64,000 nt of DNA from Candidatus Obscuribacteraceae bacterium. Lineage in GTDB: Bacteria > Cyanobacteriota > Vampirovibrionia > Obscuribacterales > Obscuribacteraceae. Each line of letters starts with the position of its first letter. Position 1 is the stretch's first letter. The stretch spans positions 224,001 to 288,000 of the forward strand of contig JBGAHS010000003.1 in NCBI GenBank assembly GCA_044226015.1, written 5' to 3'. Positions 21,238-47,128 of the stretch are shown in pieces. The notes beneath the pieces are model-generated. The model saw only the letters and a program-made list of their open reading frames with translations, had not been told where the DNA came from and ran no database searches. The translations under genes and the position numbers were made by a program.

Positions 21238-21741
21238 TTAGCTGAAGAGGTTGGCGTCGCGGGCAGATGCAACCAACCAGTTGATACAACCTGGTGTTGC
21301 GAGACCGCCAGTTACACCGGCAGCGCCCCAGAGCACTCTCTTCATTGCATCTTGGGTGCCGGCAGCCATGTGCATGAAGCCCATGATCATTGTCGGACCG
21401 CCCCATGCGATGCCTAAAATTTCCATACCGTTTGCGATGATGTTCAGCAAAGCTTCTAAGTTTGCCAGGTTGTTAACACGGACGGTACCTGCAGTGTTAA
21501 CACCTTGAATAACGGTTGCATCGCCACCTTGTGGTCCAATCGTACCGTTTGTAGCACCTTGTAGCATAGGAGCTGCGGCAGCGCCACCTTGCTGTGTTTG
21601 AGAGCCAGTGTAGTTGCCGGTGTTTTGAGTTTGATTACCGGTTGCAGCAGTTGAATCGAACGCATCTTGTGCTAATGCTGGTCCTGCGAGTGCTGCCATA
21701 ATTCCGAACGAAAGAGCGACGCGAGTAATAGAATTACGCAT
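21238..21741 (-). CDS. VirB2/TrbC-like pilin, copy 1 (167 aa)
   Basis: GGAGG RBS; signal peptide PALA|QD; polar N-region; two hydrophobic helices joined by a TQDAMKR loop. Confidence 0.6.
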   Translation of the reverse strand: MRNSITRVALSFGIMAALAGPALAQDAFDSTAATGNQTQNTGNYTGSQTQQGGAAAAPMLQGATNGTIGPQGGDATVIQGVNTAGTVRVNNLANLEALLNIIANGMEILGIAWGGPTMIMGFMHMAAGTQDAMKRVLWGAAGVTGGLATPGCINWLVASARDANLFS

Positions 21742-22012
21742 GCGAATAACCTCCAGGAGTTCTCGTCATTTAGTTTTTTAGTAAGGTGATTTGAAAGAGT
21801 TGCAAGTGCAACCGCGTGATTAAAATTACGCGAGAAAAGAGGTGAAGTCAAGTACCTAATTTCAATTCAGCCGACATTTAATCTTGGAAACCCAAATAAA
21901 GGCACGCAAGCCAGACAGAGACTGAATAGTTTTGCCCGAGAAAGCTTCCGCTCGGAGAGTTTCGCCAGAGCTATCAGGATCTGATAAGTAGACATTGAAC
22001 GATAAGTTTCTA

Positions 22013-22054
22013 TACCTCTGGCTGAACACAAGTTACCTCTGGCTGAACACAAGT
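22013..22054. repeat. 21-bp tandem duplication
   Basis: TACCTCTGGCTGAACACAAGT x2. Confidence 0.9.
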
Positions 22055-22150
22055 TCCTCACAAAACGCGAGTACGATCTGATTTGAAAATTGTCTTTCCT
22101 ATTATGTGCAATGAGGACCAACGCACCAGCGACGCCTCATGGGGAACAAC

Positions 22151-22738
22151 ATGGCAAAAATTTTGATCGTCGAAGACGAAACAGACCTTGCTGCATGCTT
22201 ACAAAGCGCACTAGCAAAAGATCAACACATTGTAGAAATTATCGATAACGGCGAGGAAGCGGCGCGGCATCTTTCAACGTATGGATTTGATTTGATTATT
22301 CTCGACTGGATGCTACCTGGCATGAGCGGCATAGATGTATGCAAGCGATACCGAAAAAATGGTGGCGATGCACAAGTGATGATGCTGACAGCAAGGTCAC
22401 ATGTCGACGATCGAGCTGAAGGACTCGACGCCGGAGCCGATGATTACCTGGGAAAACCATTTCACATGAAAGAGTTCCTCGCTCGGGTCAGAGCAATGCT
22501 ACGACGCAGCAACCACACTCATTCGCATCTTCTCAAAATCGGTGATATTGTGATCGATACCAGTGCTTCTCACTTAGAATCTAACGACAAGAAAAGCAAA
22601 CTTCTCAGGAAAGAGCTGGACATTCTTGTATTCCTACTGAAGTATCCCGGGCGTTCCTTCACCGCAGAGGAGTTGCTCATGGTATTGTACTCGGTGCCTT
22701 TCTTTTGCCGCCTCATAGTTCTTAGAGCGAACCAATAA
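22151..22738 (+). pseudogene. OmpR-family response regulator truncated within the DNA-binding domain
   Basis: Intact receiver; similarity to 12547..13218 stops after FTAEELL (~22680); recognition helix and GxGY wing not found in any frame downstream. Confidence 0.7.
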
Positions 22739-22833
22739 TTTCCAGATCTTTGGTGATTTGAACATCGATCACACACTGATTTAACACTTCTCTGGCAAGA
22801 TGTAAAAGCGAGCCCTAAAATTCGGTTTATCTC

Positions 22834-23904
22834 ATGCGAGCTATATTCGTGCGCGCGTCTATATTGCTGTGCCTATTTTCCGCCGCCCTGGCGTCTCAAG
22901 CGATTGCCTACGAGGAGAGATATTTGCCGCTAACAAACAATGTGCTCAGCAAACGCTTTCGTCAGCAATTACTCATTGACCCTCTCGAAAAAGGTAACGC
23001 AGTGAGCTTTGAAAAAACAAAACTATCAATTTCGGAAACTGGCCGATTGAATTGTTACGGTACAGACCAATTGGGTAAGAAATGGTCACTCACTGCAGGA
23101 AGCTGGAACGGCTGCGCATCAGTCTGGACCGCAGACCTCGACAAAAACGGCAAGAATGATCTCATTATTGCGATGCGGACACCCAGCGACGGTTACGAGC
23201 CAGGAGCACAACTAATCTTCCTCATGTTTGAAAAAAATGGTCGACCGGCGCCCTGGGCAGTGAGTGGATTCTTCGATATAGACGAGCATGGGCTGAAAGA
23301 CCTTCTCGATGTTGATGGCGACGGACATGCAGAATTGCTGAAACAAAGTATTAATGACGGCTATTGGCTCACCACCGTATACGAGTCTTTCAACGCGAAA
23401 TGGAAAAAGCTGAACAACTTTAATGGCAACGACGTGCCGCTCTATACTCGCTACACCGAAGAGGAAAACAGAACCGCTATCAAACCGCCACCCTATCGCC
23501 ATCCTTACGAACCCGACTATTCAAATGATAAATCTAATTCAGCTTTCTCACGGGGAGTTTTTGCCAGCTCAATTGATTGGAAAAAAAAGAAAGACGACCC
23601 CGTCATGTACCTTTCAAACAACCAACGCGTACGGCTCGCAAAATGCAGCGCGTCTGCCTATGTAAGCATTGACGATGAAACTGGTAGACGTATTGCATTC
23701 TTTTCCGCACGCGAGGTGACGAACAAGTTCTTGAACGAAATAAGGTCTCGCCATATGAAGGTAATTATCAAAGGAAACTCGAAGGGCGAGCTATCGAGCG
23801 AGATCGCTGCAAATGAGATAGCAGCGAAATCAAGCAATTCAGAATCAAACAATTGCGGAACCCCGCTAGACATTGCTCTTTTGAACAGCACAGAATTGCC
23901 CTGA
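22834..23904 (+). CDS. Exported protein with FG-GAP/EF-like Ca-binding loops
   Basis: Signal peptide; ADLDKNGKNDLII and DVDGDGHAELL. Confidence 0.7.
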   Translation: MRAIFVRASILLCLFSAALASQAIAYEERYLPLTNNVLSKRFRQQLLIDPLEKGNAVSFEKTKLSISETGRLNCYGTDQLGKKWSLTAGSWNGCASVWTADLDKNGKNDLIIAMRTPSDGYEPGAQLIFLMFEKNGRPAPWAVSGFFDIDEHGLKDLLDVDGDGHAELLKQSINDGYWLTTVYESFNAKWKKLNNFNGNDVPLYTRYTEEENRTAIKPPPYRHPYEPDYSNDKSNSAFSRGVFASSIDWKKKKDDPVMYLSNNQRVRLAKCSASAYVSIDDETGRRIAFFSAREVTNKFLNEIRSRHMKVIIKGNSKGELSSEIAANEIAAKSSNSESNNCGTPLDIALLNSTELP

Positions 23905-23911
23905 GGCTCAT

Positions 23912-26900
23912 CTAGAAGCCACTCGCTCCAGTGGGCTTTTTACACGCGGGGAGATCACGCCCCGACTTTATAGCGTCCTGTAGTGCATATGCAAATGCAA
24001 GAAATTTCTTGTTCGTCTCTGATTTAGGGTTCAGCTCGACTGCACGCTTCGAAACAAGAACGAGTCCATCGGATGCAGCCTTGTTTCGCAAACCGAAAAA
24101 CAAGGACTGCCTGTAGTACCTGGAAGCCAACTTGAGACGGTCTTTCTCGCTGCTTGAGCCGGGCTCTGCATAATATCTACAAATATCTCCCATCATGTTG
24201 AGGCAATCTCGTGCAATTTTTGCATCATCGTCGCTTCCGCTGCGAGAGAGCAAATCTAGAGTTTTCGAGATTTGGGGAATAGCCGATTTGAGCAAACCCA
24301 ATTGTAAGTAAAACTTGACCAAACAAAATGACTCTGTTGCAGACAAATACATTTTATCGATGGTTAGTCTCTGCAGAAACTCTTCTGGGAAATCAAAAGA
24401 AAGCTGCGCGCTAAACGCAGCCGAGGCTCTCTGACTTTTGTCCACTTGATGCTGTTCCATTAACGCAAGCGCACGTTCAGCCTCTACAAGTGACTTCAAA
24501 TTGCTGGGGTCAACTGCGACGGACAGACCAAATTCATGAAGTGCTTTATCGTAATTGCGCTTGCTCAGAAAGAGCCCGCCATACTCCATATGGGCAGCAG
24601 ACAGATTCCTTCGCCAATTCTCATTAGTAGGACTCAGAGACAAAGCACGATTATGAAGCGGAATAGAATCTTTCCAGAAACCATTTGAGCCTAACAATAC
24701 TGCAAAGTCATTTGCCAGTTTTGACTCCTTTGAACTTTCTTCAGAGCGAGGATGTGCGCGCAAGTCTTCATCAAAGAAGAGCACCTCCTCCCCTTCTGGT
24801 TGAGATTTCGCAGCCAATTCGTTGGGCAAATCGAGTTGCGGCAGAGGAGGTAATACCACGGTGGTTTCGGGCTCCGCACTCAGCGAAATAGGATAGATCG
24901 ATGGGTCAATCAGACTCGTACTTATGCACGGAACATCAACCTGCTCGGCAGTATTGATGGCTTGGGAAACACTTGGTGTATTGGTCGAATCAAAACTAAA
25001 CTCGATATAGACTTCAGCAGGAGCCCCAGCAGGCAAAGGCTTGAACGAAGACTCTCTGACACTGGCAAGAGCGATTTGGTCATTGAATTCAAAACCAGAC
25101 GATTGGCTTAAGTGAGAATTCAACAACCTTCCACTTCGGTCTACAGCGAATTGAACCTTTGCAGGCTGGTCGGAAGCAAGAGCAGATCTCTTTCGCCATA
25201 GAGTCTTCAATGATGTTGTCAGCTCTTTCATGTATGGTCCGTAGTCAAGATCACCTGCTGCCACTTGAGCAGGGACTGAACCTTTGCCAACAGAGAAGAA
25301 AAACTTTTTCAAATCAAATCCCTCAATAAATTCAAACCGAGGAATGCCTGTTTCTGCAGGCTTATGTGCAGCCGCCCAAATTTTTACTTCAAGAACAGCA
25401 TAATGACTTTCAAGAGTTTCGTCTTTTCCGTTGACAAACCCGGACAAACTCGCTTTATTCTTGGTCGCAATTTCAGCATTCTCGCCCAGCGAAAATGACT
25501 CCCCAATAGCTTTTCTGGCCACTCGAAGCGCCTCTGATTTTTGTCCGCACTCATTCAAAATACGAACATAATCCACGATTACCGCTGACATAGGTTTGTT
25601 GTCCAGTTCGAATGCCATTTTTGCTAATTGAACCGCCTCGTCGGGACTTCCATCTACCAGTGCCGTTTTGGCCGCATCGACAAGTGCCCGCGCGTAAGCA
25701 TCCTTTCTAAAATCAAAATATTCCTGGTAGGTCTTGTTTTTTGCATCAAGCTGCCGAGCCTTTTTCGCCCACTCAAATTGGTCCTTATTAGAACCGCCGA
25801 CCATAGCCAATTCGAAGGCCCATTGCGCCGACGGATTCAAACCAAAAGCACTTCTAGCAAGGTCAAAAGAGCCCGGACGATTCTGCTTCCAAAAATCGGA
25901 TAGACGCTCTTCCGCTTGAAGGTTAATTGAATTTGCGGGTTTGCTGGAATCAATTTTCTTGATTTGCTCCAGATCTTGTTTAAGTAATTCATCTGTTGGG
26001 TTCGCTGACTCAGCAGCTTCCCCTACAGAAATCGCTTCATTTACTAAACCTCGCTTTAAGAGAGCACGGCTTTGCAGAAGCAGCTTGTATGACCGAATAC
26101 TCCTTTGCTTTTCAAGCAAATCAGCCAAAATGCGATTTGCATCGGAAGAAAGCGAGGGGTCAATCTTCGTAGCTTGCTGGCACATCGAAACTGCCGTTGG
26201 GATATCATCGAGAAAGACTCTTAGCTGAGCCTCTTGAAGCATCTCTCTTGCAGACGTAGGCATTCGCTCTAGCACCTGAGAAAAGAGCTCAGGGCTGTCT
26301 GGGAAGCGGCTATACCCATCAAGACTTGCGGCAACTGCCCCTTCGTAATCACCTTTTTTCAAATAGCATGAAATAATCTCTCGGCAAATATCAACATTCT
26401 GCGGGCGCACCAGATATAAATAATTCAACGCATGTTCAAACTCTTGAAATGATAAATACTTCTTGCCAATTTCATAGTTGATTTTGAAATCGCAAGGGTC
26501 GCCTTTCTCACGAGTCACAAACAATTCTCTTGCGCGCAAGAGTTGCTCGAGCGCTGTGCGCTCATCACCTTTTTGCTCTGCTTCTTTGCTGAGTTTTAAT
26601 CGCTCTGACGAAGATGAAGGATTAACACCCATCGAAGAAAGACATTTATCAATCTTCCCCCGAACCCTTTCATGAAGTGTTTTTCCCGAGCCATCGTCTA
26701 CCCAAGATGCGGAGAAACCCGCAGGTGGTAATGCGCGATAAAGCCATTTTAGAGCAATGGAAGCGTCATTTTGCACAAAGTTTCCGCCAATCTTTTCGCA
26801 TAGAGCGTATACCTGTTCTGAGTCTCTTCCCTTCAATTCCGAATAGATTTGCTCAGCCAGCCCCTCATTTCGAAGCAATGCAGCAGCTCTCAAGCCTGCC

Positions 26901-28411
26901 ACGCTTGGCACAGTATGGTCAAGCAAAATGGTATGAAAAACAAAAACCTCGTCACCCTCCACCGTGTCTGCAACGAATAGCTTTTGCGACTGTTTTGTGA
27001 GTGATTCGGCTCGTTCCACCCGATTTGTTTTACTCAAAATACTAGCGTAAAGATCCCAAATTTTCTTAGGAGAATAAGTATGCAACCCTGGTTCAATTTC
27101 AAGCTTGAACCCTTCTTCGCGTGCAAAAAGCCAATCATCAATCGGCTGATTTTGTAATGCGATTTTTTTATCGCTTACAATTTCATTCCACTTAGTTTCG
27201 CGCAATTCGTGCTCAGCCACTCGCTCATTTTTAGGCTCTCTACTGGCACAATTACAATCATCGTAATTTTTCCATGTCGGTATTGACTCATCAAAATCCA
27301 CAGAGTCAGGAAGCGCAAGAACCGCACTTGCAGGAATATGGGGCATCGTACAGGCTGGAACAGGAACATAACTTAAAGCGAGATCAATACAAGCGCGGTC
27401 ATCAAAAAGAGGCGTTTCAAACAATTTCTCAGCGATCTTGTTTGAAGAATATGCACCGGCTGCCAACTGATCTGATACATCAGGTTCAACGCCGAATAAT
27501 TGAATTGCTTTCGTACAGTCTTCTTCAGCCTGGCTATAATTTTCGCTTTCGAGTGAGCGTCGTGCCCGCTCATATAACAAACGAGTAGCAAAGAAAACGC
27601 TATCGGCAAGTTCTGTTTCCCTGCTATTTTTTATCAAAGCACAAGCTCTGTTCAATACGTCATCGAGCGATTTTTTTCCATCTTTTACGCGCACTGCTAA
27701 GATTGCTGCGTTCAGAAAACAGCGAAGCGACAGATTGCGAACTCCAGCGCTCCAATACTTTTCAGCAGCGAGAGCTGAGTACGAACCAGCTTCGGCGTGT
27801 TGCAAATTGCGTGATGAAATGAATGCTAGTAAAGCATGGCAATCAGCCTGAGCAAGATTCAAGCTATCGTTTTCAGAAGATGCCAATCCGCTAGTGCCTT
27901 GCAGTTCATTGAAATAACTGAGCGCCTTTCGTACCTCAGATGAAGCTGAGTCCAAGTCACCCACCTTGCAGTGTAGCAAGGCTAAGTCATAGCTTAGAGC
28001 AGCCAGATTCTTCTTAGAAATTTGAACATCCGATGCATCCTTCATCGCATTCTCGAGCAGCACAACAGCAAAGCATCGGTCATCTTGAGATGACATGGCC
28101 AGCCTGTGGATGCAGCCAAGCAACATACGACGTTCTCTGGGTAATTTTTGCAAACGACGGATTGCATTCTCTAATCGATTTATACAACCATCAGCCTCAG
28201 TTACTCCTACCTTGCGAATCCCCTCGTTCCAATTCCTTGCAGATACAAGTTCATCCTTTATTGCTTGAACTTCATCACCTGACCTGGACCTCAATGTTTG
28301 CGCAGAGTCGTAAGATTCGACTGAATTCGCTGCGAAACCAGGAACAGCAATCGACAACGATTGAGCCAGAAGTGCCAGGGAGATCAAAACTCGAGGAAAA
28401 AATTTCATCAC
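23912..28411 (-). CDS. Large exported TPR-repeat protein with TonB C-terminal domain
   Basis: Signal peptide; many TPR-like helices; DYGPYM..W..VQFAVDRSG..SSG..DQIAL..FKPLP..IEFSF TonB_C motif. Confidence 0.8.
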   Translation of the reverse strand: MMKFFPRVLISLALLAQSLSIAVPGFAANSVESYDSAQTLRSRSGDEVQAIKDELVSARNWNEGIRKVGVTEADGCINRLENAIRRLQKLPRERRMLLGCIHRLAMSSQDDRCFAVVLLENAMKDASDVQISKKNLAALSYDLALLHCKVGDLDSASSEVRKALSYFNELQGTSGLASSENDSLNLAQADCHALLAFISSRNLQHAEAGSYSALAAEKYWSAGVRNLSLRCFLNAAILAVRVKDGKKSLDDVLNRACALIKNSRETELADSVFFATRLLYERARRSLESENYSQAEEDCTKAIQLFGVEPDVSDQLAAGAYSSNKIAEKLFETPLFDDRACIDLALSYVPVPACTMPHIPASAVLALPDSVDFDESIPTWKNYDDCNCASREPKNERVAEHELRETKWNEIVSDKKIALQNQPIDDWLFAREEGFKLEIEPGLHTYSPKKIWDLYASILSKTNRVERAESLTKQSQKLFVADTVEGDEVFVFHTILLDHTVPSVAGLRAAALLRNEGLAEQIYSELKGRDSEQVYALCEKIGGNFVQNDASIALKWLYRALPPAGFSASWVDDGSGKTLHERVRGKIDKCLSSMGVNPSSSSERLKLSKEAEQKGDERTALEQLLRARELFVTREKGDPCDFKINYEIGKKYLSFQEFEHALNYLYLVRPQNVDICREIISCYLKKGDYEGAVAASLDGYSRFPDSPELFSQVLERMPTSAREMLQEAQLRVFLDDIPTAVSMCQQATKIDPSLSSDANRILADLLEKQRSIRSYKLLLQSRALLKRGLVNEAISVGEAAESANPTDELLKQDLEQIKKIDSSKPANSINLQAEERLSDFWKQNRPGSFDLARSAFGLNPSAQWAFELAMVGGSNKDQFEWAKKARQLDAKNKTYQEYFDFRKDAYARALVDAAKTALVDGSPDEAVQLAKMAFELDNKPMSAVIVDYVRILNECGQKSEALRVARKAIGESFSLGENAEIATKNKASLSGFVNGKDETLESHYAVLEVKIWAAAHKPAETGIPRFEFIEGFDLKKFFFSVGKGSVPAQVAAGDLDYGPYMKELTTSLKTLWRKRSALASDQPAKVQFAVDRSGRLLNSHLSQSSGFEFNDQIALASVRESSFKPLPAGAPAEVYIEFSFDSTNTPSVSQAINTAEQVDVPCISTSLIDPSIYPISLSAEPETTVVLPPLPQLDLPNELAAKSQPEGEEVLFFDEDLRAHPRSEESSKESKLANDFAVLLGSNGFWKDSIPLHNRALSLSPTNENWRRNLSAAHMEYGGLFLSKRNYDKALHEFGLSVAVDPSNLKSLVEAERALALMEQHQVDKSQRASAAFSAQLSFDFPEEFLQRLTIDKMYLSATESFCLVKFYLQLGLLKSAIPQISKTLDLLSRSGSDDDAKIARDCLNMMGDICRYYAEPGSSSEKDRLKLASRYYRQSLFFGLRNKAASDGLVLVSKRAVELNPKSETNKKFLAFAYALQDAIKSGRDLPACKKPTGASGF

Positions 28412-28485
28412 GAAATTTTAGCAAGAATGGAAATGTGAGACAATTAGCGTCTGCAAGGAATTAGGTTGACATTCGGAGAAGCATA

Positions 28486-29457
28486 GTGCCTGAACATAAA
28501 ATTCTGTACCTGAGTCGAGCTGATATCGAGACAGTCAATCTAGGCATGAAAGAAATTATTGATGCGCTAGAGACGGCTTTCAAAGAACACGGTGAAAGAC
28601 GTGTTGAAATGCCGCCAAAGCCCGGAATTCACACCAAGCCAGATGCTTTTATTCACGCAATGCCAGCTTATATTCCCGCCCTGAAGTCTGCGGGAGTGAA
28701 GTGGGTTTCAGGATATCCAGAGAATCAACAAAAGGGGCTTCCCTACATTAGCGGTCTACTGGTTTTGAACGATACTGAAACCGGATTACCGCTATCGATA
28801 ATGGACTGCACTTGGATTACCGCAAAGCGAACGGGTGCCGCAACGGCTCTTTCCGCAAAATATCTGGCACGCAAAAACTCTGAAAGCGTAGGAATTCTCG
28901 GGTGCGGCGTTCAGGGACACAGCAATCTTGAGGCTTTGAAAGTTCTGTTTCCACTAAAGCGAATGGTTGCTTACGACCGATCAACTGAAGTGGCAGAGAG
29001 ACTCTGCAAATACGCAGAGAGCTTAGGTATAGAAGGAACGGTAGCTTCAACGCCGAAACAAGCCGTCGAAGGGCTCGACATGATTGTCACCGCTGGACCC
29101 ATTCTGAGAAATCCTCACGCCACTATACAGAGAGACTGGATGGCTGAAGGCGCGTTTGCTTCTTTAGTAGACTTCGACTCATACTGGGCACCAGATGCGA
29201 TGGCACAATCGGCAAAATTCACGACCGATGACATACCTCAACTAGAGCACTACCGAAACATTGGTTACTTCAAGAAAATCCCCCAATTGTATGGAACACT
29301 CGGTGATATGGTCGCAGGAACTAAGCCAGGCAGAGAAAATGACAGTGAGCGAAATTTTGCCTGTAATCTTGGACTCGCAATCGATGACATGGCAACGGCC
29401 CCACTGGTCTATCAACTTGCAATCGAGAAAAAAATTGGGACATGGTTAGACGCTTAG
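28486..29457 (+). CDS. Ornithine cyclodeaminase/mu-crystallin family protein
   Basis: HAMPAY, VKWVS.YP.N, TAKRTGA, GCGVQG, GLAIDD. Confidence 0.92.
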   Translation: MPEHKILYLSRADIETVNLGMKEIIDALETAFKEHGERRVEMPPKPGIHTKPDAFIHAMPAYIPALKSAGVKWVSGYPENQQKGLPYISGLLVLNDTETGLPLSIMDCTWITAKRTGAATALSAKYLARKNSESVGILGCGVQGHSNLEALKVLFPLKRMVAYDRSTEVAERLCKYAESLGIEGTVASTPKQAVEGLDMIVTAGPILRNPHATIQRDWMAEGAFASLVDFDSYWAPDAMAQSAKFTTDDIPQLEHYRNIGYFKKIPQLYGTLGDMVAGTKPGRENDSERNFACNLGLAIDDMATAPLVYQLAIEKKIGTWLDA

Positions 29458-29589: not shown

Positions 29590-29616
29590 GTAAGGGGGCA
29601 CACCCTGCCCCCTTAC
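29590..29616. terminator. Hairpin downstream of pilin copy 2 (convergent with the cyclodeaminase gene)
   Basis: GTAAGGGGGCA-caccc-TGCCCCCTTAC, 11-bp stem. Confidence 0.7.
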
Positions 29617-34764: not shown

Positions 34765-34773
34765 TGGTCCAGC

Positions 34774-36982: not shown

Positions 36983-37026
36983 GTCGCTGAACTTTACATA
37001 GCTGCTATACTCGCACCAGAAAGGAT

Positions 37027-37575: not shown

Positions 37576-37887
37576 TTAGCTGAACAGATTAGCGTCACGA
37601 GCTGAAGCAACGAGCCAGTTGATTGCACCTGGTGTTGCGAGTCCGCCAGTTACACCGGCTGCTCCCCAGAGTACTCGCTTCATTGCGTCCTGCGTTCCTG
37701 CTGCCATGTGCATAAAGCCCATGATCATTGTTGGTCCGCCCCAGGCGATTCCGAGAATTTCCATTCCGTTTGCGATAATGTTCAAAAGTGCTTCCAGGTT
37801 AGCGAGGTTGTTAACGCGCACTGTTCCTGCGGTGTTCACACCTTGAATCACGGTTGCATCAGCGCCTTGTGGTCCGATTGTACCGTT
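37576..37887 (-). pseudogene. VirB2/TrbC-like pilin, copy 4, 5'-truncated
   Basis: Near-identical DNA to copy 3 from the stop codon to ...GTACCGTT (37887); signal peptide, N-region and promoter missing. Confidence 0.8.
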
Positions 37888-38028: not shown

Positions 38029-41000
38029 ATGCAGCCCACTCTCACTTGGAATTCACCCCCTTGGCTATACCCTTCTCATGTCAGGTTGTGTTTTTTCTCT
38101 CTGGTTCCCGTGGTGAAAGATTTGGCTGAGCAGGAGCTAAAACTCCACAGAGTCCCCGAATTACTTGGACAGAGCAATTCCGAGGATGATAGTGCACTCA
38201 ATGTTTTCACGCGTTCGCTTGCCTACTCTGCAGCAGTTGGTCCGTCAATTGCCATTGGCGAACTTGCGGACAAAGTTGCAAGTAAACTGACTGACTCGCA
38301 ACAATCCATCTGCACCGACACCGTGAAGAGCGTCGCCCAGATGGCTGGAGTTCAAATCAGCCCAGAACAATATTCAATGGGCTCCGCGAAATGGCAGGCA
38401 CAGCAGTTGGGCAATGCAGTCGGCATGCTTGTACCTATGACTCTCCTACACAAATCTCTGGCGCCAGCTCTTCCAGCATCTGCCGGTTTGCGATCAGCCA
38501 GCAGCGGCTTCGCCTACGGAGCAATACTCACTCCCACCAATTTAGATTCAAGCTCCAGCTTGGCTGATTTACTCGCTGCAAAAACGGAAAAAGGAATTTT
38601 TACTTCATTGACCTTCGGTGTTATGGGCGCCAGCGCTTCCCGCATCGAGAATCTTCTAGCAAACTCCAAAGTCACAAACACAGTCGCAGCCGTACTTCCA
38701 GAGATCGCAAGCGTCCATGGCACCAAGCTAGCAGCTGGTGTTCTTAGTGCGATTCCGGGGGGAGTAGTGAGTGCTCAAACAACCGCCTGGGAAAGAGGGG
38801 ACAGAATCGCGAGCCTGCAGGACACGACAGAATCAATAGCTTCCCTGGCCTATGTCGGTGGTGTGTTCGGCGCGGCAAACTTTTTCGCTACCAAACCAGC
38901 AAGCAAGGCAAAACCAGAACAACAGGTATCTACATCTGAAATTCCCAACGTAATCGATACACACCGCTTCATTTTAGAAGAACCCGGCTCCAGAGGGAGG
39001 CTTTCAGGGGACTGGATGGAAACATTGCCCAGGTCAAAAGATGACCCCTTCAGCAATTGCTCAAGTCTTTCTCATCGAATTGGCATCTATAAAGAAGACC
39101 GAATCTCAAACTACTTTCAAGATGAACGAGAGTCAGAGTACGGGCTGAAACAGATGTACTTTGAACACAACCAACTAAAGTATTTTCCTGATCGATCGTT
39201 CGCTAGCCTGATAAAAAAGAGTCCGCTCATAGATAGACAATTCGATGACTCTAGCGCTCGAAATTCACTTCACCTCAAGTACTACAAACTCTACCCGGGT
39301 GAGCCTGGTGTGTCACTAAGGACGCGAGGATCCATTCTTCAGAGTTCAGGAATTACCGAACAAGAATTAGCTGGTCTCATAAAACAACACCTTAATACAG
39401 AAATACAGAATTCATCGCCAGACACACAGAGTAAAGCGATCGATTTCTTCCTGCGCACAGATTTTCCTCCTAGAAGACTTGTTGATCTTGTCCCTCTGGT
39501 GGATGAGAGATTGCTTCATTCGCTGACGCAGACCGAATTAAGAGTTGACCAACAGGACACTATTATTGAGAAATGGAACTCTCTAAGCGAGAAGACAAAG
39601 GAAATGCCTCTGCCTGTTCTGGCAAAGCTATTGAATTACCAAAACGCCTTAACTGAAGAACAGCTCGCTAGCCCGCACGTGCAAGAATATGCTGAACTAT
39701 TACATGAACTTGATTATCACGCTAAGGGTTACGAACATAATCTCGACGATCAATTCATTCGGTTTTATAGCGACCGGAAGCTTAGCTCAGCAGAGGCGGT
39801 TGGGGTCTTGCGCAGCTGGAAGGAACTTACTCCCGATGTAAAACTTCTTCCCAATGAAACGCTGGCTCCCATCGCATACAATTACCACTTAATGACGCCA
39901 GAGCAGCGCTTATTGCCCGTACCAGAACTGTCACGTTACACCAAGATAATTGACGATCTTCAGTTACAAGAGAATGGTGTAAAACAACTGAATAGCGAAT
40001 TTGCAGACTGGTATATCGCTAACTCACCAAGCGTTGATATGGCTCTGTTTGGCTTGAACAAATGGACCGAGTTATCGCCGGAATTGCGCAATCGTTTACA
40101 CGAGCCAGAACTCAAAGACAGAATACATGACCTACAAAGGCAATGGAAAAATCTATCACCTGAGCATCGTAGCTCAACCGGAACCAAGGCTCTTAATTGG
40201 GCTCATTTACGCGCAAATCTAGATGTACCAAGCTCAGCGATTCCAGAAGACTACTTAAGCTGGTACACAGTCAACAGACCCTCAAGAGCAGAAGCGCGTA
40301 AAGTATGGAGAGGCTGGAAAGAGTTTACTCCTGCTGTAAAAGCAATGGATGCTCCTTTGTTGTTTTTTCTGGCTGAGCACTGGAGCGATATTCCGACTGC
40401 CCAGAGGCAGCTCGAACCTAAGGAAATAATTCGGCAACTGAATTTGAGCGGCGAAATTGGCAAACCCCTGAACACAATTGACCCTGAGTTTGTGGAGTGG
40501 CATCGACAAAACGAACCAGCAAAAAAGGATTTGCGAATTCTGGAACGAACATGGGCGGACTTACGCAGTGATCTAAAAACCATGAAAGGCGATGATCTTG
40601 CTTGCATTGCCCGTATCTGGTCAAAACTAAATGACGAACAAAAGACGCGTCCACAGGCTGAACTTTTGCACTGGTCAAAATATTACGAAGCGCTAGGAAC
40701 CAAGCCACAGATCGAAGAGATAGTAAAAGAATCTCCAAGCTTCCGAAACTGGTTCGAAAAGAACAGTACCGATAACGGGCAGTCTATTCCTAACGTATTC
40801 GCTCACTGGAGCGATCTGACACGCGAACTTAGAGACCTTGGTCTAAAAGAAACCAGCGAGCTGATAGCTACTATGTTCTCTCAGCCAGGAAGAAATACGG
40901 CTGGAATAATTCGCGGATTGGAACTTACCGAACTGAGTTCAGGGAAAGACCCGGAGGCAGCTAAGAAACTGCTAGCTTCTCTTAAGAATGGCAGCTCAAT

Positions 41001-43494
41001 CACAGACTGGGTCGATGGAGAGGCTCAACGAATGGGGCTTTCGCAACTAGATCTTCTGGACAAAATGACAGCCATTTCTAGAATGAGCAGATCATTTTTT
41101 CTTGAAGATGCGCCCCTTGCTGAACTACCTAAAGAGCTTGTGGACAAGATGCTTCGTCTACCACTCTGGAAGTTGGAACCTGCTGTTTCCCTCTGGCAAA
41201 ATCAGGTGCGCCGTAACCTGGGGAATGTCTTGTTTACAGACAGAGCATCTGCAGGTCTTGAGGACGTTCCGCTTGTGAATGATGGCATCGAAGGTATCAA
41301 GAAATGGAACGAAACCGTAAACAACAGAGCATTTCTCGACGAGTTTTACTCGCAACTAGATGAGGCAACTGCAGCTGGCAGAGATGCGCAACTCAGCTCG
41401 TCTTCAAGCCCCTACATGGTAGTCAGACAATACTTCCCTGATCTCGAACCAGGATACGTAAACATCCTTGTTCAAAGCTTGCAAGGAGTAAGCCGGCCGA
41501 AAGACTATGTCGAGAGAATACAGCCTACTGAAATTAGAAATGCACTTCGGCGAATTAGTTTTTCGACTGATGCGAAACAGAACGCATTCGAAAAAACCGG
41601 TATTTTAGTTGCTGGCAACAACTCCTGGGTCAATGCTCAAACGGGTCATGACGGGCGCGCGGTGGTCGCGATGAATCTCCTTTCAGTTTTTGGGAAGCAG
41701 TGGGGACGTTGGCTCGATCTCCAGACCCTGAAGCACGCATTGAATTTAGAGGGTGACACAAAAGCCCGCGAAACACCCAACACTGATGAGCTAGACGAGC
41801 CAATAACAACGGAGCCTCTAAACGTGGCTCAAGCTGTCAGAGGCATGAGCGATGCAAGAAAGGCTGAACTTTTTGGCAGCCTCAGCGAATCACAAACGCA
41901 CACAGCAATACATGATGCCATGTGGATGCTTCAAAAAGTAAAGCGAGAACATGCCGAATGTTTATCGCAATGGTTGTTCAAATATTTTGATCGAGACCCT
42001 GCAGAATTGGGAGTTGTGAACAAAAGATGGCACCGCCTCGAAAGCTCATTTCGCACAGCTCCCTACAGATATGCGGACGTAGTGAATGCAGCAAAGTCGC
42101 ATAACTACGAGAACATTCAACATTCAGAGTTTGCAAAAGAAGCAGCCAAATGGGGCGTTTCCGAAGAGCGCTATCCTGAGTATGAACGCCGCTTTCTGGA
42201 CTCACAAAATTCACCTTTGCCATTTCCTCTAGATAAAGCATGGAAAGTAGGAACATATACAGGAAGGTTTCTGCCCCGCGCTGACGTTCGTGGTGTTTTT
42301 CTTGGACAACACTCCACCTGCTGCCAACACCCAGACAACTCAGCTGGTAATAGCGCCGCGTGGATGGGGCAAGAGCACCCTGCTGCGGGTTTCTTCGTAG
42401 TGGAAAGTGCAACAAAAAAAATTGTTGCACAGTCACTTGTTTGGCAATCAGATAACGGCGGTTTGGTTTTTGACAGCATCGAAGGCAAAAGACCAAAATT
42501 AGTTGAATTGGAAGCCGACCAAAACGCAGCTGCGCAAAACGCGTTAGCACAAAACGCGGCAGCACAGGACGAAGGCGCACAAGACGCAGCTGCGCAAAAC
42601 ATAGCCGCACCAAACATTGGAGCACAAGCAGACACAAGGAATGCAGGCGCGCAGGGTGCAAGGGCTCAAAACATAGGCGCACGACAAGCGGGCGCACAGA
42701 ATACAGGTGACACCGCAAATGGTACCACTGCCCAAGAGAAGAGCAATGAGGCAAAAGCAATCGAACACCTAAAGAAAACGGTGTCCGACATTTATGATGC
42801 AGCAGCAAAAGATCTGATCAAGGACTACTCTAGAATATCCGTCGGCGTGGGGCAAAGCGCAGGAAAAAGTATTGCTGATTTCGATCGCTGGCAAGCAAGC
42901 GAAGCCGAGGAGATCATGGAGACGCCGAAAGATTATTCCGGCTATTCAGATGCAAGAAAGAAGCAGCTTACGATAGCCACAAACGAAAATCCAGTTCAAG
43001 CAGAACCGACTACCCAGGCTAAAACGTGGACTCGTGCCGCAACGCCAACTGACCTGGTTAGTGCCAAGAAGATTGCAGAAGCAGTCTATCCAAGGGGATG
43101 GAACTTTATCTCTCCAGGAGATTGGAATAGGGTTTTGCAATCTAAAGAGAAAGGCGTGATTGGATATGCAACCATGGACACGCGTTCTCACTACATTACT
43201 GACGTTGCGGTACTGCCAGAGTATGGTGGCAAGTCCGTCTTGCTTTTGCGAGATATTCTTTCTGAAGTGAAGCGAATAGGTGGCAACTGGAAAGCGAACG
43301 CTCGCGCAAGCACTTCCTATGAGCTCTTGAAGCGAGCAGAGGCTCTCCGCTGGATCCAGATTGATAGAGAGATTCATCGTCCAGGAATAATGAGCGGCGA
43401 AGACATGTACGACATAATCTTCCATGTACCAGACAGACAAAGAAACAACAACGCGGCAGCACAAGCAAACGAAGCTACAGCTAACACGCAGTAA
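38029..43494 (+). CDS. Giant multidomain effector-like protein with C-terminal GNAT acetyltransferase-like domain (start uncertain)
   Basis: N-terminal hydrophobic G/A-rich region; Trp-containing helical repeats; STCCQHP domain; AQN low-complexity insert; C-terminal VIGYA..ITDVAVLPEY.G. Confidence 0.65.
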   Translation: MQPTLTWNSPPWLYPSHVRLCFFSLVPVVKDLAEQELKLHRVPELLGQSNSEDDSALNVFTRSLAYSAAVGPSIAIGELADKVASKLTDSQQSICTDTVKSVAQMAGVQISPEQYSMGSAKWQAQQLGNAVGMLVPMTLLHKSLAPALPASAGLRSASSGFAYGAILTPTNLDSSSSLADLLAAKTEKGIFTSLTFGVMGASASRIENLLANSKVTNTVAAVLPEIASVHGTKLAAGVLSAIPGGVVSAQTTAWERGDRIASLQDTTESIASLAYVGGVFGAANFFATKPASKAKPEQQVSTSEIPNVIDTHRFILEEPGSRGRLSGDWMETLPRSKDDPFSNCSSLSHRIGIYKEDRISNYFQDERESEYGLKQMYFEHNQLKYFPDRSFASLIKKSPLIDRQFDDSSARNSLHLKYYKLYPGEPGVSLRTRGSILQSSGITEQELAGLIKQHLNTEIQNSSPDTQSKAIDFFLRTDFPPRRLVDLVPLVDERLLHSLTQTELRVDQQDTIIEKWNSLSEKTKEMPLPVLAKLLNYQNALTEEQLASPHVQEYAELLHELDYHAKGYEHNLDDQFIRFYSDRKLSSAEAVGVLRSWKELTPDVKLLPNETLAPIAYNYHLMTPEQRLLPVPELSRYTKIIDDLQLQENGVKQLNSEFADWYIANSPSVDMALFGLNKWTELSPELRNRLHEPELKDRIHDLQRQWKNLSPEHRSSTGTKALNWAHLRANLDVPSSAIPEDYLSWYTVNRPSRAEARKVWRGWKEFTPAVKAMDAPLLFFLAEHWSDIPTAQRQLEPKEIIRQLNLSGEIGKPLNTIDPEFVEWHRQNEPAKKDLRILERTWADLRSDLKTMKGDDLACIARIWSKLNDEQKTRPQAELLHWSKYYEALGTKPQIEEIVKESPSFRNWFEKNSTDNGQSIPNVFAHWSDLTRELRDLGLKETSELIATMFSQPGRNTAGIIRGLELTELSSGKDPEAAKKLLASLKNGSSITDWVDGEAQRMGLSQLDLLDKMTAISRMSRSFFLEDAPLAELPKELVDKMLRLPLWKLEPAVSLWQNQVRRNLGNVLFTDRASAGLEDVPLVNDGIEGIKKWNETVNNRAFLDEFYSQLDEATAAGRDAQLSSSSSPYMVVRQYFPDLEPGYVNILVQSLQGVSRPKDYVERIQPTEIRNALRRISFSTDAKQNAFEKTGILVAGNNSWVNAQTGHDGRAVVAMNLLSVFGKQWGRWLDLQTLKHALNLEGDTKARETPNTDELDEPITTEPLNVAQAVRGMSDARKAELFGSLSESQTHTAIHDAMWMLQKVKREHAECLSQWLFKYFDRDPAELGVVNKRWHRLESSFRTAPYRYADVVNAAKSHNYENIQHSEFAKEAAKWGVSEERYPEYERRFLDSQNSPLPFPLDKAWKVGTYTGRFLPRADVRGVFLGQHSTCCQHPDNSAGNSAAWMGQEHPAAGFFVVESATKKIVAQSLVWQSDNGGLVFDSIEGKRPKLVELEADQNAAAQNALAQNAAAQDEGAQDAAAQNIAAPNIGAQADTRNAGAQGARAQNIGARQAGAQNTGDTANGTTAQEKSNEAKAIEHLKKTVSDIYDAAAKDLIKDYSRISVGVGQSAGKSIADFDRWQASEAEEIMETPKDYSGYSDARKKQLTIATNENPVQAEPTTQAKTWTRAATPTDLVSAKKIAEAVYPRGWNFISPGDWNRVLQSKEKGVIGYATMDTRSHYITDVAVLPEYGGKSVLLLRDILSEVKRIGGNWKANARASTSYELLKRAEALRWIQIDREIHRPGIMSGEDMYDIIFHVPDRQRNNNAAAQANEATANTQ

Positions 43495-43570
43495 AGCAGC
43501 CGGAATAATTCCTGATATCTTTCAAGCAAGAAATGTGATTTTTGAATCTCTCAACACTGTACTTTGTGCT

Positions 43571-43680
43571 GCTCGCCAGGAGCCCTGGGTACTCGCTAAG
43601 AGCGCAGGATATTCGCTAGGAGCGCAGGATATTCGCTAGGAGCGCAGGATATTCATTCGGAGCGCAGGCTTCCAGCCTGC
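43571..43680. repeat. 20-bp tandem repeat ending in a REP-like palindrome
   Basis: ATTCGCTAGGAGCGCAGGAT x~5, then GCAGGCT-TCC-AGCCTGC hairpin. Confidence 0.8.
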
Positions 43681-43789
43681 TTCCACACGCGAAAAGCGCA
43701 GCAACTCCTATTACAAAATTCTGCACATGTACACACCTGCGCCTTCACTCCATATTCACATCGGTATCAATATGATTGGGTAACCACAA

Positions 43790-44293
43790 GTGGAGATTTC
43801 GCGAATGTTAGACAGATTAGACTTCGCTCCGGCTGAAGATCAGCATGAAGAAACGGCGTCAGCCAGATTATCAAATTCAATAATGGATGAGCTTCGCCAG
43901 GTGCAAGCTTCGCAATCAACAAATGATGAACCCAACTTAGACCTGGTTGGATACCGAATCACGCCTCAACACGCACGCAATCTATGCAACGGGTTAAATC
44001 AACTTCAAAACGAGATGTGCCTGCAGGCGTGGAAAAGAGACGGCTACCGAACAAATAGTGAGTTAGACACACACGAAACATTCGGAGAAATGTGGGCTCG
44101 TGAAGAGCGAGAAATGCGTTCGTTTGAGCGCAAACATCATTATCGTCCACTCGACCCAAGAGCACCATGGAACCAAGATCCATCACGCCTGAACGCAGAT
44201 AGAACGGTGCGATGCCTTGGTCCCAACGCACCGAAGTCCAAAGGAGACGAACGATATCGCTGCTCCACAGAAAACAGTGGCGGATTCTGGTAA
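43790..44293 (+). CDS. Hypothetical protein
   Basis: 167-aa ORF, no signal peptide. Confidence 0.55.
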   Translation: MEISRMLDRLDFAPAEDQHEETASARLSNSIMDELRQVQASQSTNDEPNLDLVGYRITPQHARNLCNGLNQLQNEMCLQAWKRDGYRTNSELDTHETFGEMWAREEREMRSFERKHHYRPLDPRAPWNQDPSRLNADRTVRCLGPNAPKSKGDERYRCSTENSGGFW

Positions 44294-44437
44294 GCAGGAA
44301 ATGCCGGAGTGTGATTCAAATTCACTTACATCCTGGAATCAACGATTGTTATTGCTCTTACACACGGTGATGTAACTCCGCTTGCGGCTCCGGTATATCT
44401 CAGGGCGAGTAGCTTAGGGCAAGACATGACTCCTGGT

Positions 44438-46351
44438 CTAACGACTTAGTGCCGCTGCCTCATCTTCGTGGATTTTGGCAGCCTCTAACTCACCCTCGTC
44501 CCTCAGCAGTTGCGCCTGCAACTTGTGAGCATGAGCCGCCATTTCATTGAAGTGCTTATCGCCTTTAGGCATGTCATCTTTCATGTCCGTAAGAGCACGC
44601 AATATAACTCCAACCAACTTCCCGCTCTTCTGGCGATCGCCTCTTCTCATCATAAAGTCGCAAACCTCAAGACTAAATTCGCAATTTGCAAACCGAAGCT
44701 TGGGTTTGTCAACCAAAATTCCAAATGACCCATGTTGTTGAACCAATTGCGCACTTATTGTAATTGCGGGGTCAACTCCTCCGCCTGTCTTTTCGATTGG
44801 TTTTGAATTCCAGATTTCTTCCATCCTTTTGTAATTCTCTTTAGCTTTAGAGAAATTCTCTGTGGTGTCAGAGTCAACATTGCTTAAATAGTAGATAATA
44901 ATGTTCTTCCGAGCTTCTATTTCTTTGTCAGAAACCTGGCCTTTGGTCGCCCGGTGAATTAGTTCTATCGCCTGCTGGTAGCCCTTTTCAAAAAGCTCCT
45001 GGCTTTTAGCCCCCTCTATGTCAGCACGTCGCTCTATCAGCCTCGCCTTCAAGAGCAGGTCATGCTCATTATTTTCATCACAATAATTTGTCGCCTGGTT
45101 CAGTAAGTCAATTACAGTTTTGCGCGACCGGTTCATCAGCTGAGAAATCTCAACAGCTGTATCAACAAGTGAATTCAATTTCTCTGTCCTTACAGCTTCC
45201 TTTGGTTTAGAATCGAGGGCTTTCTGTAAAGCGTAATAACGTGATTTGAGCTCGTTCACTTTGCTTTGCTCTTGAGCCGGAGGTTTAAATTTCTTGTCAG
45301 CCTGGCCTGCATATTGCCTCTGAGACGACTGCAGCAAATGAGAAACTGCAAAAGTACAAACAATAAAAAATGTAGATAAAAGCAAGACAGATACCATCAT
45401 TGGTTTCTTAATTCGCTCTCTGCGCGCCAGAGAAAATTCCTTAACCTCGCTGTCACTCGCGGAAATCTTCTCGAGTTCAGCGGCAATGAAAGCTATGCTT
45501 TCAGGTCTCTCTTCAGGAGCTTTACGAAGACAAAGATCAAGCAACTGCGCCAACTTCAGTTGCGATTCCGTTTGCGTTTTACTCTCAAGCTTGGGAGGCG
45601 CTTCATGCATATGCTTGTACATAAACTCCATGCCACTGCTGGCGGTGAACACGTGCTCTCCTGTTAAACATTCGTACATTAAGCAGCCTAACGAATAGAT
45701 GTCAGACCGGTGATCTACTTTCGAGCCATTGCACTGCTCAGGGCTCATGTACGCCGGGCTACCTAGCAACAGATTCGATCTTGTTAAAGACAAAGAATCT
45801 GTGCCCTGGTCTGGCATCAGCAATCGTGCTATACCGAAGTCAATTACTTTTACCAGCTCACGTCCATCAGGATCCTTCGTCAAAAATATATTGCTGGGCT
45901 TTATGTCACGATGAACAATATTTTTTCCGTGAGCATGAATCAGCCCCTGGCACACCTGCTCAATAATGTTGAAAAATCTCGCGACCGGAAGTGTTGAAAG
46001 CCTAGAAAGCACCGCAGAAAGTGGCTCACCCTCAAGATACTCAAGCACATGATAGGGATTACCATCATCAGTGATACCAGAGGCAAGAATCTTCACAACG
46101 TTTACATGCTCTAGCGAAGCAAGGGCTTTAGCTTCTCGCAAGAACCGTTCATGCAATTCCTCGCTGCGAGCCCCCTCGAAATTCAGCAGCTTCACAGCCA
46201 CTTCGCGTTGAAGAATCATGTCCTTCGCATGTAACACCACCCCCATGCCACCTTGACCGATGACTGTGACTTCACTGAAACGGCCGGGCAAAAATTTCTT
46301 CTGTACTGTCACATCTTGAAGGTCTATGGAAGGGCTTAAGTTATCTTCCAT
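44438..46351 (-). CDS. Hanks-type Ser/Thr protein kinase with TM segment and helical extracellular domain
   Basis: GQGGMG, VAVK, HRDIKPSN, DFG, GSPAYMSPE, DIYSLG; TM after the kinase domain. Confidence 0.95.
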   Translation of the reverse strand: MEDNLSPSIDLQDVTVQKKFLPGRFSEVTVIGQGGMGVVLHAKDMILQREVAVKLLNFEGARSEELHERFLREAKALASLEHVNVVKILASGITDDGNPYHVLEYLEGEPLSAVLSRLSTLPVARFFNIIEQVCQGLIHAHGKNIVHRDIKPSNIFLTKDPDGRELVKVIDFGIARLLMPDQGTDSLSLTRSNLLLGSPAYMSPEQCNGSKVDHRSDIYSLGCLMYECLTGEHVFTASSGMEFMYKHMHEAPPKLESKTQTESQLKLAQLLDLCLRKAPEERPESIAFIAAELEKISASDSEVKEFSLARRERIKKPMMVSVLLLSTFFIVCTFAVSHLLQSSQRQYAGQADKKFKPPAQEQSKVNELKSRYYALQKALDSKPKEAVRTEKLNSLVDTAVEISQLMNRSRKTVIDLLNQATNYCDENNEHDLLLKARLIERRADIEGAKSQELFEKGYQQAIELIHRATKGQVSDKEIEARKNIIIYYLSNVDSDTTENFSKAKENYKRMEEIWNSKPIEKTGGGVDPAITISAQLVQQHGSFGILVDKPKLRFANCEFSLEVCDFMMRRGDRQKSGKLVGVILRALTDMKDDMPKGDKHFNEMAAHAHKLQAQLLRDEGELEAAKIHEDEAAALSR

Positions 46352-46629
46352 TCAAGCGCGCTCCTGTCACCGCTATTAACATATGCCCGCTCGACCGCTA
46401 CTGATTTACATTCTCGGGTATTTTCTTGCTTTATACGCACAAGATTCGGTGGACCACTGGATGGAAGATTGCTTCCGCTTTGTCAGCTTGTGCACAAAGG
46501 AGCCAGCAATCGACATTGGGTGCCTGGAAGAGGGACCATCAGCTTCGTCAACATGGGCTCCCCCAAATATCAAAATCTCTGAGCCAAGTCAAAATCGAAT
46601 GGACCTTCGGAAATCGCTGAATCTCCAAA

Positions 46630-46666
46630 ACCAAAGAGAAGAGCCGAGGCTCTTCTCTCTGTTGGT
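46630..46666 (-). terminator. Terminator of pilin copy 5
   Basis: AGAGAAGAGCC-ga-GGCTCTTCTCT hairpin. Confidence 0.7.
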
Positions 46667-46684
46667 ATTGAGGCGTGGTTAAAA

Positions 46685-47128
46685 TTAGCTGAACAGATTA
46701 GCGTCACGAGCTGAAGCAACGAGCCAGTTGATTGCACCTGGTGTTGCGAGTCCGCCAGTTACACCGGCTGCTCCCCAGAGTACGCGCTTCATTGCGTCCT
46801 GCGTTCCTGCTGCCATGTGCATGAAGCCCATAATCATTGTTGGTCCGCCCCAGGCGATTCCGAGAATTTCCATTCCGTTTGCGATGATGTTCAAAAGTGC
46901 TTCCAGGTTAGCGAGGTTGTTTACGCGCACTGTTCCTGCGGTGTTCACACCTTGAATTACTGTTGCGTCAGCGCCTTGTGGTCCGATTGTACCGTTGGTT
47001 GCACCCTGCAACATTGGGGGCGCACCGGTATCAGCTGTTGAATCAAACGCGTCTTGTGCTAGAGCTGGTCCGGCAAGTGTCAAAACGACTGCTGATGCCA
47101 TTGTTATCTTTGCCAGGTTCTTAATCAT
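46685..47128 (-). CDS. VirB2/TrbC-like pilin, copy 5 (147 aa; 60-bp in-frame deletion)
   Basis: Near-identical to copy 3 but reads TGAPPMLQ where copy 3 has TGAQTNNTGNYTGSQTQQGGSTAAPMLQ. Confidence 0.6.
   Translation of the reverse strand: MIKNLAKITMASAVVLTLAGPALAQDAFDSTADTGAPPMLQGATNGTIGPQGADATVIQGVNTAGTVRVNNLANLEALLNIIANGMEILGIAWGGPTMIMGFMHMAAGTQDAMKRVLWGAAGVTGGLATPGAINWLVASARDANLFS

Follow-up and report, generated by a model that had tools for sequence, protein, structure and literature searches.

Five Pilin-like Genes in the Window

The window analyzed here, a 64,000-nucleotide stretch of the genome of a Candidatus Obscuribacteraceae bacterium (assembly GCA_044226015.1, contig JBGAHS010000003.1, positions 224,001 to 288,000), carries five copies of a gene for a small protein whose build resembles that of the pilins of type IV secretion systems (T4SS). 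The genome containing the window is labelled G000 below, and C1, C3, C5, C6, C10, and C11 are its contigs. The copies and the elements beside them are as follows.

21238..21741, minus strand: copy 1, 167 amino acids (aa), with a Sec-type signal peptide ending ALA-Q, a Gly/Thr/Gln-rich N-terminal segment, and the conserved two-helix core
21180..21214, minus strand: terminator-like hairpin after copy 1, 15 bp
29648..30151, minus strand: copy 2, 167 aa, the most divergent copy, with average codon use (61st percentile)
29590..29616, minus strand: terminator-like hairpin after copy 2
34150..34653, minus strand: copy 3, 167 aa counted from the likely start at 34653
34090..34121, minus strand: terminator-like hairpin after copy 3
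34688..34766: element upstream of copy 3, 84% identical to 47164-47242 upstream of copy 5
37576..37887, minus strand: copy 4, present in the assembly as the core alone, with the signal peptide and N-terminal part absent
37517..37551, minus strand: terminator-like hairpin after copy 4
46685..47128, minus strand: copy 5, 147 aa, with a 20-aa gap in the N-terminal segment
46632..46661, minus strand: terminator-like hairpin after copy 5

As the original prediction, made from the letters of the window, had claimed, these are five co-oriented minus-strand paralogs (ends at 21238, 29648, 34150, 37576, and 46685), each followed on its 3' side by a hairpin of its own of 11-15 bp. The near-invariant core described there was also recovered; it runs for 94 aa from DATV to the stop and varies at exactly three positions (V/I, A/C, and C/A). 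Copies 1 and 2 are indeed divergent at synonymous sites, sharing 78-83% DNA identity with the others over the last 102 codons, whereas copies 3-5 are mutually 97-98% identical over the same codons (dS of 0.08-0.11). The start first proposed for copy 3, 34746, was revised to the likelier 34653, which gives 167 aa as in copies 1 and 2. Spacers between successive copies measure 7906, 3998, 2922, and 8785 bases, and the array extends beyond the copies first described, with a sixth copy 20,390 bases beyond copy 5 and two further copies on C3. Altogether, the family has 13 matches in G000, eight of them close standalone copies and five distant or fused.

Across the eight close copies, the last 102 codons differ by 0-4 aa while dS ranges from 0.08 to saturation, and the ratio of nonsynonymous to synonymous substitution (dN/dS) is at most 0.036 wherever dS is finite. 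The core is under strong purifying selection, as had been proposed. Codon use lies at or above the 99th percentile in six of these eight copies, the exceptions being copy 2 and one C3 copy (96th), measured against a background of 3088 windows of open reading frames (ORFs), some of them non-genes, with a ribosomal-protein cluster and four housekeeping genes as reference. This ribosomal-protein-like codon use supports an abundant product and suggests high expression. The element shared by copies 3 and 5 is likely a promoter or leader region; a promoter scan gave a result no better than chance (22 against 20.2).

The assembly of this region was examined with contigs of four sequencing runs aligned to 28.5-48 kb, a comparison at contig level and not at read level. 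Run X1, possibly the source of the assembly, and run X2, from another study, each cover 30 of the 30 bins of this interval. As to whether copies 3-5 might be assembly artefacts, a possibility raised by the original prediction, they are not collapsed duplicates, because 2-3% of their bases differ and each has its own surroundings. Contigs of X1 and X2 lead from 37888 into a pilin-type upstream region and not into the core of copy 4, with a joint from 34766 to 37888 (depth 13.1 and 12.6), and where copies 3 and 5 have their 5' parts, the summed depth is about twice as high. Because the contigs enter such an upstream region and the depth doubles over these 5' parts, copy 4 is probably full-length in the organism, with about 400 bases missing from the assembly. 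A joint and loose ends were also found at 47019-47020; the loose ends resemble the kind of segment absent from copy 5, and the 20-aa gap of this copy may be the same kind of assembly error.

Build, Fold, and Range of the Protein Family

The protein opens with a signal peptide ending in AxA-Q and a low-complexity segment; after these, two helices stand between a conserved motif and a C-terminus that is likewise conserved. A basic start, a hydrophobic stretch, and the AxA-Q site occur in seven of the seven full-length copies of G000, as expected of a Sec signal peptide, for which cleavage is predicted. An AlphaFold2 model built from 87 sequences is a hairpin: in mature-chain numbering, the first helix spans 57-102 and the second 108-139, with a short charged loop in between. 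Residues 71-140 are modelled with confidence (pLDDT of about 81-96), whereas the N-terminus is disordered. Conservation reaches at least 95% in 70 of the 88 core columns (117 of 120 homologs), and the low-complexity segment before the core spans 52-190 aa (median 55 in 123 proteins). Some standalone variants (P0281, P0287, P0288, P0291, P0293, P0296, and P0297) carry a glycine-rich repeat of 100-190 aa inserted ahead of the core.

No family was assigned to the window protein by Pfam and NCBIfam scans, and searches of PDB sequences with profiles of this family and of the second hairpin family described below returned none at E up to 10. Weak contacts with known pilins were seen among family members: seven of 87 touch TrbC and two of 87 touch T4SS_pilin at E values up to 1, and, when 37 members were scanned singly, the hairpin of one divergent member matched T4SS_pilin at E 0.0029 (below cut-off) and that of one matched CagC at E 0.055. 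A structural search with the pilin model returned generic hairpins only (best Z 8.1, root-mean-square deviation (rmsd) 5.2, 87 residues aligned). Foldseek against PDB and BFVD, together with VIA-align, gave no match at E 0.001 and no pilin or inovirus coat protein among the matches listed, a result that leaves such a fold possible. In Atlas, the named clusters closest to the window protein are DUF3852 and DUF4134 (0.84, a lead only), both of which we take to be pilin-like. Some VirB2/TrbC pilins are cyclized; in G000, an adjacent pair of S26 peptidases on C5 could not be distinguished from LepB.

Obscuribacterales are uncultured, non-photosynthetic relatives of cyanobacteria, and the family is present in 106 of 107 genomes of this order, with 1-35 matches per genome; a phylum sample of 300 genomes from outside the order had none. 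In a class sample, all 49 genomes of the order were positive, compared with one of 151 others, at a borderline E of 6.8e-4. Named homologs belong to Ca. Obscuribacterales or Melainabacteria, plus a few other labels.

Two T4SS Operons Elsewhere in the Genome

The original prediction had found no VirB4 or other T4SS gene in the window, and a scan of its 30 ORFs likewise found none. The genome-wide search for VirB4 that it proposed returned zero matches in G000 with the CagE/VirB4 Pfam model; a search based on the TraG P-loop family showed that 106 of the order's 107 genomes encode VirB4-like ATPases, usually two each, and in G000 these lie in two operons, both outside the window. In the operon on C10 stand a small gene for a two-helix protein, the VirB4 gene (product of 944 aa), a gene for a protein of 215 aa with a single helix, the VirD4 gene (PF02534, E 2e-15), and a relaxase gene (Replic_Relax, E 5e-12); this operon is conjugation-like, chromosomal, and conserved across the order (L114:8355-8810, L109:5035-13022). 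The C1 operon comprises a small two-helix gene, VirB4 (TraC_F_IV, E 2e-15), a 123-aa protein, and a 198-aa protein, with no VirD4, relaxase, or linked pilin. Gene order of both operons is kept across the loci read.

Of 107 genomes of the order, 104 encode the 198-aa protein of the C1 operon. Its model (pLDDT 83.5) has VirB8-family proteins as all of its top 11 structural matches (Z 11.2-14.0), the best being pKM101 TraE (Z 14.0, rmsd 2.6, 127 residues aligned), and thus shows a VirB8 fold. In both operons, the large upstream proteins with many helices are interpreted as extended VirB6 on the basis of position and hydrophobicity, one of 11 orthologs having a weak TrbL_4 match (E 0.0026), and a putative VirB3 is assigned by position and hydrophobicity. 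The C1-type VirB4 orthologs share 73-85% identity within the order and 22-27% with proteins elsewhere in the class and on plasmids; among NCBIfam models, CD1110 and TraC-F rank first, all below cut-off. TrbI-like matches occur in 105 of 107 genomes and exceed the cut-off in 52.

Other T4SS-related genes were encountered in the order. Additional VirB4 paralogs, 60-66% identical to the C1 type, occur at L133:9432-12080 (G047), G064 C3:190446-193010, G045 C276, and G071 C13. Ordinary T-type conjugative genes, with TrbC and TrbI over cut-off, are found in G039, G012, G050, and G079 (L081, L082, L087-L090) and are distinct from the order-wide system. Weak TrbC matches in genomes of the order, read at 16 loci, were discarded as belonging to other proteins and not to the window family. 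TadE/TadG-like genes lie at 3711-6866 in the window and beside the C1 virB4 operon (L107:10669-17671), Tad pili being a separate filament system.

A Second Hairpin Family and Fusions to VIT/vWA Proteins

A second hairpin family was found via the C-terminus of another VIT protein. Its members have a signal peptide ending AHA-Q, a 97-aa mature chain, and a glycine-rich, weakly hydrophobic hairpin, are near-invariant, and occur in 101 of 107 genomes of the order, often in tandem. All five loci that cover the site place this family 0.3-2 kb ahead of the C10-type operon's VirB6-like gene; it therefore stands near virB4, which the window family does not. The nearest named Atlas clusters of the second family are DUF4134 (0.90) and DUF2976 and DUF3852 (0.89), so that DUF4134 and DUF3852 are common to both families. 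DUF2976 is listed as a candidate major pilin (VirB2) of ICEclc in the relevant part of PMC10018362.

Both hairpin families are fused alike as the C-terminus of VIT/vWA proteins. For the window family, 139 of the 141 homologs of at least 400 aa are VIT/vWA-type and two resemble the protein at C6:323214, as judged by BLAST to seven local references; among the 75 long homologs of the first search, 69 end in the motif by pattern and four more by eye. These fused forms keep the N- and C-terminal motifs, and their helices have diverged into ordinary transmembrane helices. The fusion partners match NCBIfam models of sortase, XrtN, and PEP-CTERM targets, and relatives carry PEP-CTERM at the same place; in G000, one homolog has a KPEP-CTERM end and an exosortase next to it.

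Function of the Array

We consider it rather probable, if far from certain, that the window family is the major VirB2-type pilin of a divergent chromosomal T4SS encoded elsewhere in the genome. The original prediction had read the signal peptide and hairpin as VirB2/TrbC topology, and that part stands, reinforced by two VirB4 operons and by a look-alike in one of them; profile, profile-profile, and fold searches did not establish membership of VirB2/TrbC, and the helices are weakly hydrophobic. The array works like a T4SS pilin array and cannot yet be filed as VirB2/TrbC. The argument from the second family is one of analogy, because the two families do not align significantly: they share build, arrays, and fusions, and there are two machines, of which one lacks a linked pilin.

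Under this proposal, the precursor would be cut at ALA-Q to remove its Sec signal peptide, the two-helix hairpin would sit loosely in the inner membrane, and a platform of VirB3, VirB4, VirB6, and VirB8 would extract and polymerize it, with the short variable N-terminal segment facing outward. The C1 operon would be the likelier partner machine, because the C10 operon has its own look-alike pilin, and with the C1 partner the filament would be more for contact, adhesion, or uptake than for exporting DNA. Amplification had originally been attributed to dosage or to N-terminal variation; the latter is real across the order and small within G000, therefore dosage is favored, and the copies would be kept mainly for this purpose.

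A number of observations weigh against this assignment. The mature chain of 143 aa is about double that of a typical VirB2, and hydrophobicity is weak in the standalone helices (1.31 and 1.12; mean over 12 members, 1.27), compared with 1.6-2.6 per helix in three TrbC proteins and 1.98 in fused forms. TrbC and T4SS_pilin have no match in the genome, four true TrbC proteins go unmatched by the family profile even when E values up to 100 are allowed, hhalign against a TrbC profile of four sequences only gives a probability <1%, and in the members scanned singly the best TrbC match covers the signal peptide alone. Homology between the two hairpin families, proposed from a gapless by-eye alignment, was not confirmed (hhalign probability <1%). 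As to the machine, VirB9 (CagX) was found in none of five genomes searched, TrbI-like genes are scattered and below cut-off in G000, and the C1 virB4 (C1:183271-185976; L107:7271-9976) contains two adjacent in-frame TAA stops in the assembly, representing either a pseudogene or a consensus error, with nearly all of the listed orthologs open. The pilin array is unlinked to either virB4 (278 kb apart in G013); linkage to the C1-type operon was hinted at in G001, contradicted in G013, and unseen in four further genomes, and was not retained. Finally, the co-occurrence of the family and VirB4 at the level of the order counts as a single evolutionary event.

The missing sequence or fold link to VirB2 and the missing linkage to virB4 would also fit a T4SS-independent, membrane-associated protein that is abundant and forms a lattice at the surface or in the periplasm, whose conserved domain self-assembles and onto which VIT/vWA proteins dock through the same domain, and so would the fusions that keep the terminal motifs while the helices diverge. 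This alternative seems unlikely to us, since a protein of the same build and with the same fusions lies inside a VirB4-VirD4 operon, neither pilin family is represented in the C1 operon at the five loci read, and the Atlas neighbors are small proteins of conjugative elements.

The T4SS pilin reading can be extended to the fusions. Tentatively, and with considerable doubt, we propose that two vertically inherited T4SS machines have two pilin families that look unrelated, and that each pilin domain may act as a C-terminal address tag loading large VIT/vWA surface proteins onto the pilus or platform, replacing PEP-CTERM/LPXTG. Provided that such a tag acts via the pilus machine, proteins would be sorted by fusion to a pilin, which would be a new route. 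It is quite improbable that the domain is mainly a C-terminal sorting signal for a dedicated enzyme, with standalone copies being small surface proteins sorted likewise, as PEP-CTERM proteins are. The 139 of 141 long homologs that belong to VIT/vWA families, elsewhere sortase or exosortase targets, and the KPEP-CTERM homolog of G000 speak for it; however, sorting signals combine a short motif, one membrane helix, and a basic tail, whereas this domain has two helices and no basic tail, the standalone core is near-invariant, and five small or compact genomes have standalone-length copies only. Exosortase and sortase were both rejected as processing enzymes for their mismatched distribution: no sortase was found in G000, and exosortase, which has its own target, is not the general enzyme for the hairpin domain because only 63 of the order's 107 genomes have it, and it was not found in the single-contig genome G004 with its five family matches.

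This near-universal and apparently highly expressed protein, together with two chromosomal T4SS operons, is a candidate for the defining surface structure of the uncultured Obscuribacterales. It predicts a contact-dependent life, involving adhesion, predation, or DNA exchange, and makes the window protein a target for proteomics or cryo-electron microscopy (cryo-EM) in activated-sludge enrichments. Standard VirB4 and TrbC Pfam models miss both T4SS operons in G000.

Flanks and Cargo of the Locus

The remaining features of the locus are listed below.

17295..18143, minus strand: thiF/moeB-family gene, an array flank conserved across the order
22139..29457: cargo between copies 1 and 2, with a response regulator, a weak FG-GAP protein, a TPR-TonB protein, and an ornithine cyclodeaminase
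30341..33813: cargo between copies 2 and 3, with a small ORF, an APH phosphotransferase, and a trypsin-like protease (Pfam)
34774..37356: cargo between copies 3 and 4, including ORF 34774-36243 directly upstream of copy 3
38029..46351: cargo between copies 4 and 5, with an 1821-aa protein without family match, a small ORF, and a Ser/Thr kinase

On the other flank lies a CxxCxxCC protein (L001:11003-12232; C6:295003-296355), found upstream of the array in 16 loci; most of this protein can be aligned with the profile of FliB, a flagellin lysine-N-methylase (E 1.2e-10, below cut-off). No flagellin was found in the five genomes searched, and the FliB-like gene may modify the pilin or be merely syntenic. 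The loci compared were 22, fetched from top hits and hence non-random; both flanks are visible in 14 of them and in G000, and the other eight show one flank or were fetched for another purpose. In these 15 loci, 1 to 6 copies lie between thiF and the CxxCxxCC gene, eight loci being plain tandem arrays, two single-copy, and five with cargo (G000, G065, G063, G004, and G054), and the interval between the flanks ranges from about 2 kb in G039 to about 53 kb in G000. The array is thus an ancestral locus between thiF and the FliB-like gene, of which the version in G000 holds six copies and unrelated accessory genes. In the synteny comparison that the original prediction called for, the flanks are conserved across the order, and cargo and copy number are variable.

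The unrelated 3-9 kb cargo described there was substantiated by Pfam for the TPR-TonB protein, protease, phosphotransferase, and kinase, and Pfam also identified the response regulator and the ornithine cyclodeaminase; the supposed giant GNAT protein (38029-43494, 1821 aa) has neither a Pfam match nor an NCBIfam GNAT match, which leaves its name unconfirmed. Its N-terminal part is like C11:1116092, and it contains a 5-aa repeat at 42496-42626. ORF 34774-36243 resembles, by comparison of the printed sequences, a protein 62 kb away (C6:323214-324593; L006:5214-6593) with a pilin-like domain in mid-protein. Compared with seven same-genus genomes, DNA identity is 65-75% in the left flank and 76-87% in the pilin genes; most cargo has no match at E 1e-10 in these genomes, with at most 37 candidates scored per genome, and the weak FG-GAP protein is also present in same-genus arrays. 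No pilin copy lies near the kinase homologs (two genomes) or the homolog of ORF 36439-36894 (one genome) in the fetched stretch, one contig ending just past the gene. Cargo varies between genomes, and its movement between anchors is unsupported; most likely, it would be ordinary accessory DNA inserted between terminated monocistronic genes.

That the repeats are kept as recombination anchors for swapping cargo blocks, as first suggested from the direct repeats, is very improbable. In its favor, cargo differs among relatives, pilin DNA is better conserved than the flanking genes within the genus, and copies 3-5 arose by recent duplication. Against it, plain tandem arrays make up 8 of the 15 loci and single copies another 2, three cargo homologs lie without a pilin copy in the fetched stretch, selection acts on the protein with synonymous sites near saturation, and an independent run carries the same cargo across the 30 bins of 28.5-48 kb.

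Other repeats of the region include intergenic short tandem repeats at 33860-33979, 43573-43672, 47703-47933, and 59713-59901 (periods 30, 20, 38, and 13), and at 43577-43659 and 47767-47806 the sequencing runs disagree in the number of units. Next to a MATE transporter or esterase gene, the genus and its neighbors have another array of the window family, with up to seven copies in 14 kb (L002, L040, L041, L042, L045-L047).

Comparison with Known Systems

No description of the hairpin family or of an Obscuribacterales T4SS was found in the open-licence literature, supplements aside, and the main text of a 2025 T4SS review makes no mention of Melainabacteria, Vampirovibrio, or Cyanobacteria. 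Among neighboring sources, the relevant part of 10.1101/2022.07.08.499144 concerns another phylum, a passage of 10.1101/2023.06.07.544157 leaves VIT domains unmentioned, and PMC5877343, in the part concerned, covers type IV pili of another order. Within the same class, the T4SS of Vampirovibrio chlorellavorus is, according to part of PMC4451040, T-type and largely plasmid-borne, whereas VirB4 of the system described here has matches of only 22-27% outside the order.

VirB2/TrbC pilins (PF04956, PF18895) and DUF2976, DUF4134, and DUF3852 share with the window protein a signal peptide, two helices, and a short charged loop. Unlike VirB2/TrbC, the window protein has a longer mature chain, a conserved extracytoplasmic motif and C-terminus, weakly hydrophobic helices, and no significant profile match. 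The fusion partners match VIT/vWA proteins of the PEP-CTERM, XrtN, and sortase systems (TIGR02921, TIGR04477, and TIGR03788), with the tag likewise at the extreme C-terminus; here, however, the tag is a two-helix domain of 90-110 aa that is also an abundant standalone gene, with no cognate sortase/exosortase pattern.

Multiple pilin copies serving a T4SS that possibly only builds a pilus are described, in parts of PMC12857230 and PMC4676284, for Bartonella Trw and Anaplasma VirB2, and Trw lacks VirD4, as does the C1 operon. The copies of those systems are sequence-variable, which is read there as antigenic or host-range variation, whereas the core is near-invariant here; VirB9 was also not found here, in the five genomes searched. 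Another parallel is with the Patescibacteria, whose T4SS, as portrayed in part of PMC12102498, is likewise chromosomal and lineage-wide with VirB3/VirB4/VirB6, and has arrays of 2-11 pilin genes, in tandem or split by non-pilin genes. Their pilins match Pfam, have about 25% mean identity within an array, and often lie near virB4, whereas the cores described here are 96-100% identical, have no profile over cut-off, and lie far from virB4, and genomes of the order hold two VirB4 operons, one with a relaxase. The likeness extends to VirB4 itself, which scores best here on the CD1110 (monoderm-type) and TraC models.

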